DNA of 27,915 nucleotides, from the NCBI GenBank assembly GCA_051746725.1, contig JBNJFI010000020.1:1-27915 (forward strand), in the 5' to 3' direction. Each line of letters opens with the position of its first letter. Within the stretch, counting starts at the first letter, position 1. This DNA comes from Fusobacteriota bacterium. GTDB lineage: Bacteria; Fusobacteriota; Fusobacteriia; Fusobacteriales; JBNJFI01. Shown here in pieces: positions 3,186 to 7,983 of this stretch. A program made the position numbers and the translations under genes. The notes under the pieces were generated by a model, which was not told where the DNA came from, searched no databases, and was given only the letters and a program-made list of their open reading frames with translations.

Positions 3186-3803
3186 GTGAAAGACTTAAAG
3201 GAGATTTTTGAAGCTAGAAGATCAGTAAACTCATTTGATACAGAGAAAAAAATAGAAAAAGGTCTTTTAAAAAAGATAATAAATCTAGCAACATTAGCTC
3301 CTTCTTGTTTTAATATGCAACCATGGGAGTTAATAGTAATAGAGTCAGAAGATAAGAAAAAAGAACTATATGATAAATCATGTAATCAACCTAAGGTATT
3401 AGATGCACCTGTAACATTAGGAATAATAGGGCATACCAAGGGTTATACAAAGAAAAATCCAATATGGAAGGTCAAAAAAGACTTAGGGAGAGCTACAGAT
3501 GAAGATATTGAAAACTATGTTAATATGATGAAAGGATTATTTCCAAATAGAGAAAGAGAAGTTGGGTTTGCAGTTAGAAATAGTTCTCTTTTAGCAATGT
3601 CTATAATGTATGCAGCAAAATATTATGGAGTGGATAGCCATGCCATGATAGGTTTTGATGAAGATGAGTTTAAGAAGTTATTTAATATAGAAGAAGATAA
3701 AGTAGTTACTATGCTAATGACATTGGGATATTTTGATAATAAAAATGAGTTATATCCAAGGGAAAAAAGGTTTAATTATGAGGAGATTGCAACAGAATAT
3801 TAG
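3186..3803 (+). CDS. Nitroreductase family flavoprotein
   Basis: GTG start after AAGGAGG; RRSVNSF, APSCFNMQPW, SHAMIGFD and LGY FMN-binding motifs. Confidence 0.9.
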   Translation: MKDLKEIFEARRSVNSFDTEKKIEKGLLKKIINLATLAPSCFNMQPWELIVIESEDKKKELYDKSCNQPKVLDAPVTLGIIGHTKGYTKKNPIWKVKKDLGRATDEDIENYVNMMKGLFPNREREVGFAVRNSSLLAMSIMYAAKYYGVDSHAMIGFDEDEFKKLFNIEEDKVVTMLMTLGYFDNKNELYPREKRFNYEEIATEY

Positions 3804-3835
3804 TAAAAGAAATTTTTGAAAAATATATATAAATA

Positions 3836-3874
3836 AAAAAGACAAATTGAGTAGATAGCTCAGTTTGTCTTTTT
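3836..3874 (+). terminator. Intrinsic terminator (symmetric A/T tails)
   Basis: AAAAAGACAAATTGAG-7 nt-CTCAGTTTGTCTTTTT hairpin with one G-U pair, downstream of the nitroreductase. Confidence 0.8.
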
Positions 3875-3887
3875 AAATTAAGATTTC

Positions 3888-3916
3888 TTGATAAAAAGGA
3901 TAAAATATAGTAAGAT
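3888..3916 (+). promoter_or_regulatory. Candidate sigma70 promoter for msrA-msrB
   Basis: TTGATA (3888-3893), 17-bp spacer, TAAGAT (3911-3916). The AT-rich background lowers specificity. Confidence 0.45.
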
Positions 3917-3955
3917 TAATTATAAAAGATTAAAAAAATACTAAAGGAGATAATA

Positions 3956-4495
3956 ATGAAGAAAAAAAATAAAAAAGCTATATTTGCTGGAGGATGTTTT
4001 TGGTGCATGGAGAATCCTTTTCGAGTGGAAAATGGTGTAATAGATGTAACAGTTGGTTATACAGGTGGAGAAACTAAAAACCCAACTTATGAAGAGGTTT
4101 GTACTGGAACTACAGGTCATTATGAAGCTATAATGGTAGAATATGATCCAGATGAAGTCACTTTTGAAAGATTAATAGATATATTTTGGAAGCAGATAGA
4201 TCCAACAGATGAAGGGGGACAATTCGCAGATAGAGGATCTCAGTATGAGACAGTTATATTTTATAAAGATAAAAATCAAGAAAAGATCGCAAAGAAGAAG
4301 AAAAAAGAGTTGGACGAATCTGGGAAGTTTAAAAAGGAGATAGCAACTAAGATACTTCCAGCAGAGATTTTTTATCCAGCTGAAGATAATCATCAAAAAT
4401 ATTATCTTAAAAATCCTACTCATTTCAATATGTATAAAAAAGGATCAGGGCGAGCAGACTATCAAAACGAAACTTGGGGAGGCAAAGATGAGTAA
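3956..4495 (+). CDS. msrA: Peptide-methionine (S)-S-oxide reductase
   Basis: [34 protein letters not shown] and FYPAE..HQ.YY motifs. Confidence 0.97.
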
Positions 4496-4922
4496 CAAAG
4501 ATGATTTAAAAAATAAATTAACTCCGATACAATATGAGGTAACTCAGAAAGATCAAACAGAACCTGCTTTTAAAAATGAATATTGGGATAAGGAAGATGA
4601 GGGAATATATGTAGATGTTGTAACAGGAGAACCTCTTTTTTCTTCTAAAGATAAGTTTCAATCTGGCTGTGGATGGCCTAGTTTTTCAAAACCTTTAAAA
4701 GAAGAAAAAGTAGAAGAAAGAAAAGATAATAGCTTAGGAATGCATAGAACAGAGGTTAGGAGCAAAAAAGGGGATTCTCATTTAGGTCATGTATTTAACG
4801 ATGGACCACAGGAGATGACCGGGCTTAGATATTGTATAAATTCAGCTTCTTTAAAATTCATACCAAAGGAAAAGATGGAAGAGGAAGGGTATGGTAAGTA
4901 TTTAGAAATCTTTGAGGAGTAA
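4488..4922 (+). CDS. msrB: Peptide-methionine (R)-S-oxide reductase
   Basis: [23 protein letters not shown] and RYCINS; no Zn-binding CxxC pairs; 8-bp overlap with msrA. Confidence 0.97.
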
Positions 4923-4936
4923 CATAAAGTAATAAA

Positions 4937-4948
4937 TAAAAACATAAA
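4937..4948 (+). repeat. Left target-site duplication TAAAAACATAAA
   Basis: Identical to 5213-5224; directly abuts the left terminal inverted repeat. Confidence 0.75.
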
Positions 4949-5031
4949 TAGGTAGTTGCAAAACTACAGAAAGAAACTATGAGTTTATCCACAAAGTTAT
5001 TAATAGTTTTAATCTAATTTGATTTTGTATT

Positions 5032-5058
5032 ACCCGGGCGAAGGCCCTTCGCCCTTAC
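5032..5058 (-). repeat. REP-like unit 1 (GTAA + 8-bp hairpin)
   Basis: Minus strand reads GTAA-GGGCGAAG-GGC-CTTCGCCC-GGGT; a GC-rich island in AT-rich DNA. Confidence 0.8.
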
Positions 5059-5095
5059 GTTCAGATTACATAGGGATAAGGATATAAGTTTTTCT

Positions 5096-5122
5096 GTAAG
5101 GGCAAACGGCGTTTGCCCGGGT
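5096..5122 (+). repeat. REP-like unit 2 (GTAA + 8-bp hairpin)
   Basis: GTAA-GGGCAAAC-GGC-GTTTGCCC-GGGT; 23/27 identical to unit 1, and all four differences form two compensatory base pairs. Confidence 0.8.
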
Positions 5123-5212
5123 GCAACCAGTATCTAAAATTGGAGGGATACTCTAATTTATAGAACTAATAAAGCAAATGAAATTAGGATATAAGAATTT
5201 TGCAATTAGCTA

Positions 5213-5224
5213 TAAAAACATAAA
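5213..5224 (+). repeat. Right target-site duplication TAAAAACATAAA
   Basis: Identical to 4937-4948; abuts the right terminal inverted repeat. Confidence 0.75.
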
Positions 5225-5238
5225 AAGAAGGAGAAAAA

Positions 5239-5883
5239 ATGGAAACTAAAGAAGAAATTTTAAAAATATATAATGAAATAGAAGATGATATAAATAAAAG
5301 ATTAGCTGAATTTAAGGCAGTTTGGGAAGAGGGGAGCAAAAAAGATCTCTTTATAGAGTTAACGTTTTGTATCTTAACACCTCAATCTAAAGCAAGAAGT
5401 GCAGATAAGGCCATAAAACAACTTATAGAAAATGGTTTGCTTTTTAACGGTCAACCAGAGGAGATATCTGAGTATTTAAATATCGTAAGATTTAAAAATA
5501 GAAAAGCTCAGTATTTAGTAGAAGCCAGAGAAAAATTTTATAAAGATGGCGAATATATATTAAAAGATATCTTAGAAGATTTAGAAGATCCTATTGAGAT
5601 GAGAAAATGGATTATAAAAAACATTAAGGGGATTGGTTATAAAGAATCTAGTCATTTTTTAAGAAATGTAGGATTTTATAAAGATATAGCAATTTTAGAT
5701 CGTCATATATTAAGAAATTTAGTTTACTTAGGAGTAATAGATGAAGAGCCGAAAACTTTAACAGGAAAAAAATATTTAGAAATAGAAGAAAAAATGAAAA
5801 AAGAATCAGATAAATTAGGTATCAGTATGGAGTATCTAGACTTGGTATTGTGGTATAAAGAGGCAGGAGAGATATTTAAATAA
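5239..5883 (+). CDS. ogg: 8-oxoguanine N-glycosylase/DNA lyase (Ogg2 type)
   Basis: FCILTPQS, VRF.N.KA, HhH motif KGIGYKESSHFLRNVG, ILDRHIL and the C-terminal Lys (GEIFK) typical of Ogg2. Confidence 0.9.
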   Translation: METKEEILKIYNEIEDDINKRLAEFKAVWEEGSKKDLFIELTFCILTPQSKARSADKAIKQLIENGLLFNGQPEEISEYLNIVRFKNRKAQYLVEAREKFYKDGEYILKDILEDLEDPIEMRKWIIKNIKGIGYKESSHFLRNVGFYKDIAILDRHILRNLVYLGVIDEEPKTLTGKKYLEIEEKMKKESDKLGISMEYLDLVLWYKEAGEIFK

Positions 5884-5898
5884 AATCTCTGAAAAATA

Positions 5899-5916
5899 TT
5901 TGACTAGGTAGTCAAA
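5899..5916. promoter_or_regulatory. Palindromic operator 1 (probable TetR site) overlapping the -35
   Basis: TTTGACTA-GG-TAGTCAAA, perfect 8-bp arms. Confidence 0.8.
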
Positions 5917-5928
5917 ACGTGGTATACT
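5900..5928 (+). promoter_or_regulatory. Sigma70 promoter of the tetR-efflux operon
   Basis: TTGACT (5900-5905), 17-bp spacer, TATACT (5923-5928), with extended -10 TG at 5920-5921. Confidence 0.85.
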
Positions 5929-5935
5929 CTATTTA

Positions 5936-5949
5936 TGACTAGATAGTCA
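5936..5949. promoter_or_regulatory. Palindromic operator 2 near the predicted transcription start
   Basis: TGACTA-GA-TAGTCA, same core as operator 1, 35 bp downstream. Confidence 0.8.
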
Positions 5950-5971
5950 AAATAATTTAGGAGGTGATTAT

Positions 5972-6661
5972 GTGAAAGGAAAATTACAAGATGAACTAAT
6001 AAGTAACGCTGAAATTTTATTTGCAAAGAATGGTTATATAGGGACGACGGTAAAAGATATTACTGATAAAACTGATGTTTCCAAAGGAAGCTTCTATAAT
6101 TGTTTTAAAAATAAAGAAGACATCTTATTAAAAATATTTGAAAAAAATATGATAAAATATGATTCAGGGCGAGAAATCATTTTAGAAAAAACAATGGAAA
6201 TACCTGAAAAAATAAAAGCACTCATAAGATATGAATTAAAGTTTTATATGGAAAATAAAAGCCATTATGCTTTGATATTAAGAGTGATGAGTGGAGAGAA
6301 ATTAAAAATCAAAAAAGTAGTAATGTATAATATTAATAGGCGTATATTAGAAACTAAAATAATAAAAGATTTATTAGAAAAAGCTCTAGAAAAAAGTAAA
6401 ATAAAAAAAATATATAAAAATAGGTTGGTAGATATTGCTAATATTTATAACGCAACAATAAAAGATCATATTTTTTATTTAATAGGAAAGAGTATACAAG
6501 GTCTAGAAGAAAGGACCTTAAATGAAAGTAGAGATTATGATGAAGACTTTTTTGGAAATTTTTTAAAAGCTTTAAATAATTTAGAAATAGATATAGATAA
6601 GGAAGCAGAGTTTATATTTAATATATTTTATAATGGAATTAGTAATTCAGATAAGGTATGA
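5972..6661 (+). CDS. TetR/AcrR family transcriptional regulator
   Basis: N-terminal HTH LFAKNGY.GTTVKDI...VSKGSFYNCFKNKEDIL; GTG start after AGGAGGT. Confidence 0.92.
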   Translation: MKGKLQDELISNAEILFAKNGYIGTTVKDITDKTDVSKGSFYNCFKNKEDILLKIFEKNMIKYDSGREIILEKTMEIPEKIKALIRYELKFYMENKSHYALILRVMSGEKLKIKKVVMYNINRRILETKIIKDLLEKALEKSKIKKIYKNRLVDIANIYNATIKDHIFYLIGKSIQGLEERTLNESRDYDEDFFGNFLKALNNLEIDIDKEAEFIFNIFYNGISNSDKV

Positions 6662-6681
6662 AAATCAAAAAAGGAGGAGAT

Positions 6682-7983
6682 ATGAGAAAAAAATTAACTA
6701 TAATTTTAAGTTTAGTAATTATTATAGCTACATATTCTGAAACGATAACATTAGATGAAGCTATAGGAAAGGCCTATGAAAACAATTTTGAAGTTAAAAA
6801 CTCTGAATTAGATGCAGAAAATGTTGAACTTCAAAAAAAACAAGCTTATAAAACGGTATTACCAAAGGTTGATTACTCGGGATCTTTTGCTAAATTAAAG
6901 GACAAAATGCAAAAAGAAAATCCATCAGGATCAGGAATGATAGAGATAGAAGATTCTGACAGCATGTACAATCATTCTATAAAAGTAAGTCAACCTGTTT
7001 ATAATGGTGGAACAATGTGGACGGCAATAAAGATTGCGAAAATATCCGAAGATATGAGTGATTATAACTTAGAAAACAAAAAAGATGAGATAAAACTGTC
7101 TGTTATGGAGTCATATATAGGGATTTTGAAATTAAAAAAAGAAGTAGGTGTATTAAAAAGCTCTTTAGAAGAAATTGATAGAAATCACATAAAGTTAGAA
7201 GAATTTTATGATCTTGGAATGGTTACCAAAACTCCTGTTTTAGACATAGAGTATAGAAAGATTGAGTTAGAAAGTAATATAATGGCTTTGGAAAACAATA
7301 TAAAGATAGCGAAGTCTTCCTTAAAAAATAGTTTAGGAATAAAAGACTCTGAACCTATAGAGTTAGTTGACTTAGAATTGGAAGATATGAAGTATGATTC
7401 AGAATTAAATGGTGATGTTAAGTATGCCATGGATAATAATTTAAATTTGAAGTTATTAGATATAAATATGAAGATCAAAAAAGAGCAAGAAAAGATTACA
7501 AGGGCAAATCTATTACCAAAGATAAATTTACAATTTGAATATAAAAATCCTGAAACTGAAATGTTTACATTAGAAGATAGTATTAAAATCAATGATTGGA
7601 CTTGGCAAGCAGGAATATCTTTTAATATAAATCTTTGGGATTGGGGAAAAAATTTAGATAAATTATCGGAAACGAAAAATAAAACAGAAAAATTTAAAAA
7701 TGAAAAGAAAAATAATGAAGAAAATATAAAACTAGGAATAAGAAGTAAATATTACGAATTAGAAAGATTAGAAAAATTATTAAATTCTAAGGAAAAAGCA
7801 TATGATAGTGCAAAGGAAAATTATTTGATAGAAAAAGAAAAACTTGATGAAAACATATCTACTGCTACTGACTTTTTAGAAGCAGAAAACAGATTGAGAA
7901 AAACAGAAATAGAGATAATAAAGACAAAATTAGACTACAAATTAGCTCAAGAAGATTATAAAATTATGGTGGGTAGAAAATAA
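6682..7983 (+). CDS. TolC family outer-membrane efflux protein
   Basis: Start moved from 6658 to ATG 6682 (RBS AGGAGG; gives a clean signal peptide); TLDEAI..A..NN, LPK, QPVYNGG and LWDWG motifs; upstream of MFP and RND genes. Confidence 0.9.
   Translation: MRKKLTIILSLVIIIATYSETITLDEAIGKAYENNFEVKNSELDAENVELQKKQAYKTVLPKVDYSGSFAKLKDKMQKENPSGSGMIEIEDSDSMYNHSIKVSQPVYNGGTMWTAIKIAKISEDMSDYNLENKKDEIKLSVMESYIGILKLKKEVGVLKSSLEEIDRNHIKLEEFYDLGMVTKTPVLDIEYRKIELESNIMALENNIKIAKSSLKNSLGIKDSEPIELVDLELEDMKYDSELNGDVKYAMDNNLNLKLLDINMKIKKEQEKITRANLLPKINLQFEYKNPETEMFTLEDSIKINDWTWQAGISFNINLWDWGKNLDKLSETKNKTEKFKNEKKNNEENIKLGIRSKYYELERLEKLLNSKEKAYDSAKENYLIEKEKLDENISTATDFLEAENRLRKTEIEIIKTKLDYKLAQEDYKIMVGRK

Follow-up and report, generated by a model that had tools for sequence, protein, structure and literature searches.

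REPs and MITEs have been treated as separate classes with different enzymes, and the way in which REPs spread is still argued. The REPs of TnpA(REP)/RAYT subclass 2.4 (Bertels group 4) carry a GT[AG]G tag at the foot of a perfect stem that opens with three G-C pairs, and the sections describing them give hairpin relatives in frame inside RAYT genes as a trait unique to this subclass (bioRxiv 10.1101/279083). REPINs (Bertels and Rainey) consist of inverted related REPs with steady spacing and a variable spacer, which together can form one long hairpin; they are reported to be linked to RAYT groups 2 and 3 and to differ from MITEs (bioRxiv 10.1101/2021.07.10.451892). TIRtrons combine tyrosine-transposase systems with inverted repeats, which are described as flanking a RAYT-like gene (Di Nocera et al. 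2013, PMC3733652). A REP inside a MITE is already in print as QMITE2 of Coxiella burnetii, a MITE with TIRs, variable direct repeats and an internal GTAG REP that is described as an IS1111 target; the word RAYT is absent from the main text, and the passages concerned mention neither core exchange between shells nor REP constraint (Wachter et al. 2018, PMC5896051). In the parts of the literature covered by our search, no paper dealt with core exchange between shells or with REP constraint within MITEs; REP tables in figures or supplements may list the hairpin described here, and Elhai et al. 2008 may cover the cyanobacterial cases given below.

The DNA studied here is contig C20 of a 2.18-Mb assembly (28% G+C, 155 contigs, 97% complete) of a Fusobacteriota bacterium that is the sole member of its family among the genomes compared; the whole stretch of 27,915 nt is called the window. 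An original prediction, made from the letters alone, had proposed an inverted REP-like doublet nested inside a MITE at this place and had regarded the combination as undescribed in this kind of organism, which in view of QMITE2 was too strong. Based on our analysis, the element and its surroundings are organized as follows:

4488-4922, forward strand: upstream host gene msrB
4937-4948, forward strand: left target-site duplication, 12 bp
4949-5212, forward strand: whole MITE (shell 1 plus A/B core), 264 bp, non-coding, with msrB and the ogg-type glycosylase gene on either side
4949-4963, forward strand: left terminal inverted repeat (TIR), 15 bp
4964-5031, forward strand: left arm, partly common to shell-1 copies with other cores
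5032-5058, reverse strand: hairpin unit A, with GTAA tag (5055-5058), 8-bp stem and GGC loop (5036-5054) and a 4-nt tail
5059-5095, no strand: spacer of 37 nt, more variable than any other part of the element and by eye homologous across both shells
5096-5122, forward strand: hairpin unit B, with GTAA tag (5096-5099), 8-bp stem and GGC loop (5100-5118) and a 4-nt tail
5123-5197, forward strand: right arm, its final c. 72 nt alignable to shell-1 elements with other cores
5198-5212, reverse strand: right TIR, 15 bp
5213-5224, forward strand: right target-site duplication, 12 bp
5229-5233, forward strand: Shine-Dalgarno-like motif, beginning 5 nt past the duplication and 6 nt ahead of the ATG at 5239
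5239-5883, forward strand: downstream host gene, N-glycosylase/DNA lyase of Ogg type

Units A and B, which form the longest inverted repeat within window positions 3500-7000, proved to be inverted arms of 27 nt, 85% complementary and 37 nt apart, just as predicted. Each forms a perfect 8-bp hairpin, and the two GTAA tags point inward. When each unit is read on the strand that bears its tag, 4 of the 27 positions differ between them, and these amount to two exchanged base pairs in the 8-bp stem, so the claim that all four differences preserve the stem is correct; the chance that four random substitutions would exchange two stem pairs in this way is P about 1.8e-4. The nesting inside a MITE was borne out as well, with TIRs matching at 13 of 15 positions around the doublet and an exact 12-bp target duplication. 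The element is short, non-coding and present in many copies, as MITEs are, including an identical copy on contig C13 and a 97% copy on C45; an Rfam search with it gave no score near the gathering threshold. The left arm holds a 9-mer (4985-4993) that is a candidate DnaA box by its match to the consensus. This 9-mer has a fixed place in the left arm, and of its 44 exact genomic copies about 12 belong to shell-1 left arms. Elsewhere in the window, positions 2-66 hold the right end of a further shell-1 copy, truncated at the contig start and lying directly before a ribosome-binding motif, and positions 5896-5952 hold two near-palindromic repeats of 19-22 nt 5' of a TetR gene heading an RND efflux cluster, which are probably the operator of that gene.

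Searching the genome for the hairpins at up to three mismatches revealed 31 loci, namely 23 full doublets and 8 singles (three of the latter truncated by contig ends, four with a decayed partner), compared with none in each of three base-shuffled genomes. A TIR adjoins 30 of these 31 loci, far beyond chance; the matches lie with terminal repeats, a point that the original prediction had proposed to check, with the qualification that the MITE ends come from two shells whose TIRs are unrelated. On reading, 25 loci lay directly in shell 1 and four in shell 2 (C5, C75, C118, C119), one was a chimera with a shell-2 left end joined to a shell-1 right arm at hairpin B (C12), and one was TIR-less (C3). 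The latter (C3:345-546) retains a sole hairpin A, its B being lost past its tag, with 7-nt tandem repeats upstream; its junction is also present in contigs of two RNA-library runs, such contigs being no proof of expression. Among the matches listed from public-run contigs, with short ends visible, no joint, empty site, or RAYT- or transposase-like loose end was seen, and for contigs from four public runs every difference listed within the doublet fell in its spacer.

Between the two shells, homology extends beyond the doublet by only about 6 nt on the side of A and 5 nt on the side of B, which defines a shared hairpin-pair module of c. 95 bp whose limits fall near the base of the long A-B duplex. 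Since homology is confined to the doublet and these few nucleotides, and since the spacers align by eye, the doublet is one module of single origin. Among 24 spacers, the length was 35-39 nt in 21 and 25, 114, and 164 nt in the remaining three. With this steady short distance, the inverted order, the variable spacer and the ability to form one long hairpin, the doublet resembles REPINs; unlike them, its tags face inward and the unit is copied together with TIRs and a 10-14-bp duplication, 30 of 31 loci lying beside TIRs rather than standing free.

The spacers also bear on the idea, raised in the original prediction, that the element is the shrunken relic of a TIR-bounded cassette that once had a RAYT or cargo gene between its REPs and lost it by deletion. 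The doublets with 114- and 164-nt spacers would fit this, as would a Clostridia element (see below) whose REP pair is about 105 nt apart, and RAYT genes flanked by inverted repeats are described for the TIRtrons (PMC3733652). However, the two long spacers occur in shell-2 contexts and are unlike each other, no RAYT similarity was found in any spacer (read by eye as possible RAYT fragments, they revealed nothing conserved) or elsewhere in the genome, and no long copy was present in the genome, in 20 + 17 regions of relatives, or in three metagenome loci. No cargo gene was found in the assembly; between the repeats of TIRtrons there is a gene, whereas here there is none and the ends make a target duplication. 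We consider this origin very improbable.

Shell 1 is not restricted to the A/B core in this genome. Other cores are a different palindrome family with six complete copies and a single GTAG hairpin with one, and shell 2 holds a further GTAG doublet. Some elements nest three deep, shell 2 being inserted in the palindrome family that itself lies inside shell 1 (C75:7250-7830, C119, C5, C11, C59). On contig C33 (136-431, locus L012), a shell-1 copy sits within a shell-2 element, and the GTAG REP tag directly after it looks similar to a ribosome-binding motif. With regard to the target, 20 of 21 complete shell-1 elements displayed a duplication of 10-14 bp, and a ribosome-binding motif starts 5 nt past it in 16 of the 21, a raw count given with no null distribution. 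All complete elements inspected, the window copy included, were intergenic, and the element precedes some 25 genes of the 2.2-Mb genome. Such a target rule may bring shells next to REPs and in this way favour REP capture.

Outside this genome, the exact hairpin pattern was found at 67 loci in Cyanobacteria, Chloroflexota, Bacteroidota, Desulfobacterota, Bacillota and others; they cannot be counted as independent, a few cyanobacterial genera contributing many of them. It was absent from 189 other genomes of the phylum and from the viral contigs searched. At the free inner pair of the pattern, the foreign loci revealed 57 Watson-Crick pairs, 10 G-T pairs on the tag strand and no mismatch, and at the other pair 64 Watson-Crick pairs, one G-T and two mismatches, a covariation taken from direct pair counts. 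A RAYT-like gene lay within 3 kb at 4 of the 67 loci, the hairpin being inside the ORF at one; three of these four genes matched Pfam Y1_Tnp, one of them below cut-off, and three relatives that were scanned scored just below the NCBIfam RAYT cut-off. In genome G191, B-like hairpins lie in frame within the RAYT gene, and RAYT-bearing genome G190 carries hairpin A with a GTAG tag about 10 times, its RAYT itself being flanked by another REP variant; GTAA is the minority tag in G190, G191, and G193. None of the RAYT genes found had A or B directly at its flank. Within the phylum, 12 of 190 genomes carry a RAYT of this type, and at one such locus (L155) the flanking hairpin differs by one base from the single-hairpin core of shell 1.

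Since the matching hairpins covary and lie in or beside RAYT genes at four loci, A and B are hairpins of REP type. The REP architecture claimed in the original prediction therefore held for the family, members of which occur in and around RAYT genes elsewhere, rather than for the exact doublet, whose inward-facing tags read GTAA instead of the canonical GTAG or GTGG. In regard to subclass 2.4, to which we assign the related RAYTs by described features and not by a tree with that paper's sequences, A and B share the perfect GC-rich stem with three G-C pairs at its foot, the short loop and the many extragenic copies (31 loci), and some RAYT genes contain hairpin relatives in frame; unlike those REPs, they carry GTAA instead of GT[AG]G and lie within MITE ends at 30 of 31 loci, and no cognate RAYT was found in the 97%-complete assembly of 155 contigs. 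The four differences between A and B are fixed in all intact copies and the same variants recur in other phyla. Judged by these sequence comparisons, they are inherited variants of a covarying REP family rather than changes that arose in this MITE, and the former argument that they point to selection on ssDNA or RNA structure does not follow: compensatory changes alone are no proof of selection inside the MITE.

The evidence for constraint comes instead from the population of copies. Copies were found by whole-element BLAST (arm-only queries gave nearly the same set), and 21 of the 25 shell-1 loci were aligned, C4, C15, C86, and C110 being left out as cut by contig ends; that on C13 is the one identical to the window copy. 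Internal parsimony changes per site amounted to 0.02 in hairpins and tags, 0.23 in TIRs, 0.86 in the spacer, and 0.70 in the arms, and terminal ones to 0.61, 0.43, 1.27, and 0.96, respectively (Fisher p=1e-5 in this first tree), figures to be read with the mosaic nature of the copies in mind, as recombination inflates internal counts at variable sites and the spacer alignment is gapped. A tree built without hairpins and TIRs gave 2 internal and 27 terminal changes at 46 hairpin sites, 6 and 14 at 30 TIR sites, and 136 and 182 at 187 arm and spacer sites. At G/C sites alone, the corresponding counts were 0 and 24 in hairpins versus 56 and 86 elsewhere. Independent of any tree, 50 of 78 pairs were more than 20% diverged outside the hairpins, with a divergence of 0.295 there versus 0.029 within hairpins. 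Tag and loop were kept as constant as the stem, and there was one common variant, in which a C-G pair of B had become T-G on the tag strand. The same test on 16 copies in genome G126 was uninformative, this family being young.

These counts show that, in lineages with several descendant copies, the hairpins changed less than the TIRs. The terminal branches behave otherwise: 24 of 28 terminal hairpin changes in the first tree fall in 4 of the 21 copies, and a comparison of the siblings C38 and C115 showed 5 differences at 46 hairpin sites versus 6 at 180 other sites. As such siblings lose hairpin bases, the hairpins are unprotected after insertion. What is new here is this combination of hairpins that are nearly unchanged on the internal branches among 21 copies, yet decay after insertion. 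The term hitch-hiking, by which the composite element had been described, fits insofar as REP and MITE occur together, but is too weak if meant as neutral, given hairpins more constant than the TIRs. Altogether, the element works like a REP doublet carried by a MITE, standing apart from strict REPs of a RAYT by its tag and the missing enzyme and from REPINs in that it is not free-standing.

A neutral passenger could produce some of this pattern if the doublet was captured once and passively copied, its perfect 23-nt hairpins being overwritten by short gene conversion among about 30 copies. The copies are indeed mosaic, with visible recombinants (C45, C12) and correlations (rho) of 0.26-0.35 between regions, and in REP-carrying MITE families elsewhere REP-free members multiply too and many REPs have decayed. 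However, conversion tracts would need to stop at the hairpin edges, the adjoining spacer being most divergent, A and B have remained distinct though 85% alike and adjacent, and two shells without homology to each other retain the same hairpin sequences. We therefore regard conversion as an unlikely cause, somewhat less so than a relic cassette. The same correlations (spacer-arm rho 0.27 and 0.35 versus arm-arm 0.26) indicate that the spacer is no less tied to the arms, and independent core movement within shell 1 is not shown by them.

The joint constraint on tag, stem, and loop is most simply accounted for by protein recognition, namely by a RAYT-type nuclease, and both loop and tag are reported to matter for RAYT cleavage in the experiments described in PMC8266576. 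On this basis, we give about even chances to a reading in which a REP doublet module resides in two MITEs whose ends are copied by a DDE-type transposase, the hairpins being kept intact through recognition by such a nuclease. A DDE transposase acting in trans would insert the element as a whole directly 5' of ribosome-binding motifs, and a RAYT like those of subclass 2.4, not found in the assembly, would nick and strand-transfer at the hairpins, moving the doublet between shells and joining arms of different copies. Only copies with intact tag, stem, and loop would stay in the cycle; once out of it, a copy would see its hairpins decay like the remaining sequence. RAYT action would also explain why the module is bounded near its own duplex and why the chimera is joined at hairpin B.

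Several observations speak against the RAYT reading: the missing enzyme, the GTAA tag, the lack of any RAYT flanked by A or B among the loci found, and the spread of shells without the doublet (see below). In the own genome, Pfam PF01797 gave no RAYT, tblastn a best E of 0.6, a profile of 15 relatives (stops read as X) a best domain E of 1.4, and further tblastn searches a best E of 0.003 for a match without the family motifs. Thus neither a cognate RAYT nor a gene between the REPs of other copies, both of which the original prediction had looked to, was detected by Pfam, tblastn, or profile, an absence that weighs little, the assembly being fragmented and many of its contigs terminating in such repeats. 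The tag is GTAA, a minority form in G190, G191, and G193, and its last two positions are those on which cleavage is reported to depend most in the RAYT groups studied (PMC8266576), so the hairpins may be poor RAYT substrates.

Constraint might alternatively act on RNA. The MITE lands in one orientation before ribosome-binding sites and would be transcribed, and a copy might persist only where its doublet, folded into local hairpins or into the 27-bp A-B rod, helps to stabilise or process the message that follows, with no RAYT involved today. Message stabilising and processing have been described for other bacterial MITEs. Apart from the ribosome-binding motifs beyond the duplication (the raw count of 16 in 21), this explanation can draw on a predicted folding of the element far better than that of shuffles (z=-5.5) and on a predicted 27-bp A-B rod of -42.7 kcal/mol versus -25.9 for two hairpins as RNA, in which pairing would also hold tags and loops; moreover, nearly all shell-1 families seen have some GC-rich hairpin core, of several unrelated types, and no RAYT is needed where none was found. 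On the other hand, selection by the host should act after insertion, yet siblings lose hairpin bases as fast as others. The three mismatched positions in the rod have not been repaired, nor do they vary freely, internal branches revealed no compensatory change, and the tag strand of hairpin A is the antisense strand. A promoter scan of the element gave a match at chance level only and no terminator was found, and RNA-library contigs are no measure of expression. Taken together, we hold such RNA-level tolerance to be a serious alternative, though of well under even probability; conversion and the relic cassette fit less well than either the RAYT or the RNA reading.

The DDE-type transposase is deduced from TIRs and target duplications by analogy with IS biology; since no parent IS turned up, these ends are the basis of this step. 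No match to four transposase and DUF559 families (PF13751, PF01609, PF04480, PF13610) was found in the own genome, and no parent IS with the same ends in the own genome, relatives, viral contigs, plasmids, or sampled Clostridia. In 350 sampled Clostridia genomes, the shell-1 end had 10 single matches, one of them a MITE, and searches for the whole element elsewhere yielded only short chance-level pieces, in 3 of 40 relatives and in plasmids. Some candidates were rejected: TIR matches in viral contigs as unpaired chance matches, IS1182-, IS4-, and IS6-like loci of relatives as having other ends, and an ORF beside a lone TIR in genome G007 as a single-copy host gene. The shell-1 TIR contains a GTTGCAAA core similar to that of long IS6-family elements, with the IS26 end as reference. 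An assignment of shell 1 to the IS6 family was nevertheless dismissed, since 20 of 21 duplications measure 10-14 bp versus 8 bp and none of 37 IS6-like loci had a shell-1 TIR pair, the IS6-like loci of the phylum having other ends. The bacterial members of long IS6 clades tabulated by Harmer and Hall (2019, PMC6807381) likewise make 8-bp duplications, in contrast to the 10-14 bp of shell 1, which ends in TAG. As a side observation, relatives harbored multicopy IS6-like transposases of 480-530 aa with a cysteine-rich segment (L217-L219 in G002, L220-L221 in G012, L222 in G174, L223 in G171), which exceed the long clades in that tabulation (PMC6807381).

Elements like shell 1 were also identified elsewhere. 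MITEs with shell-1-like ends and other hairpin cores occur in genomes G126, G127, G002, and G007 and at two metagenome loci, and G116 carries one 177-bp shell-1 copy without a GC-rich core. Shell 1 has thus multiplied with different cores, one copy lacking a GC-rich core, so that the A/B doublet is not required for its spread. Individual cases are L125:1501-1700, L134, L139 (G002), L300, and L301 (G007), which are shell-1-like yet have other repeat cores, each G002 locus a different one. The two metagenome elements (L184:313-550 and L186:940-1187) have a non-A/B core that may resemble CGTC-type repeats. Both keep the DnaA-box-like 9-mer, which the metagenome search pattern required, hence they are not independent instances of it. 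A Clostridia genome (L263) holds an element of 304 bp whose end is that of shell 1 and whose duplication measures 11 bp; it contains a different GTAG pair, likewise facing inward, with about 105 nt between the two REPs.

REPs of this family also occur in other MITEs. Around the 67 foreign hairpins, inverted repeats of at least 13 nt enclosed 14 of 67 versus none of 134 control positions, compared with 18 of 67 versus 17 of 134 at a threshold of at least 11 nt, so only the 13-nt threshold separates them. Cyanobacterial MITEs of Okeania, Dapis, and Trichodesmium, which were chosen by their TIRs alone, held a REP of this family in 33 of 48 members in G546 and 16 of 18 in G547 (read by eye), 15 of the 48 in G546 being REP-free by the same reading and many REPs in such MITEs being decayed. 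Like the window element, these MITEs of c. 91 bp are TIR-bounded with a REP of the same family; unlike it, they have other TIRs and one hairpin instead of two, and their REP-free members multiply. The loci examined (L306-L320 in G545-G547) have several unrelated interiors and are nearly all 91-92 bp long, the pattern having admitted 76-106 bp. REP-in-MITE is therefore recurrent, and a REP is not required for growth of a MITE family.

Combining these observations, we propose, tentatively and with well under even confidence, a two-enzyme element in which a DDE transposase would move the shell to ribosome-binding sites and a RAYT-type HUH nuclease would act on the hairpins, so that persistence would need both signals intact, the shell family being an exchangeable carrier of hairpin repeats from several unrelated systems in different phyla. 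If this carrier reading is true, REPs need not rely solely on their own transposase in order to spread. A single REP module occurs in two MITE shells, and in the lineages that continued to multiply it has varied less than the TIRs. Should a RAYT be responsible, the doublet offers a defined substrate for the little-studied enzymes of subclass 2.4, with which it could be tested whether GTAA retargets cleavage; if RNA structure is the cause, it would explain why the host tolerates an element inserting next to ribosome-binding sites.
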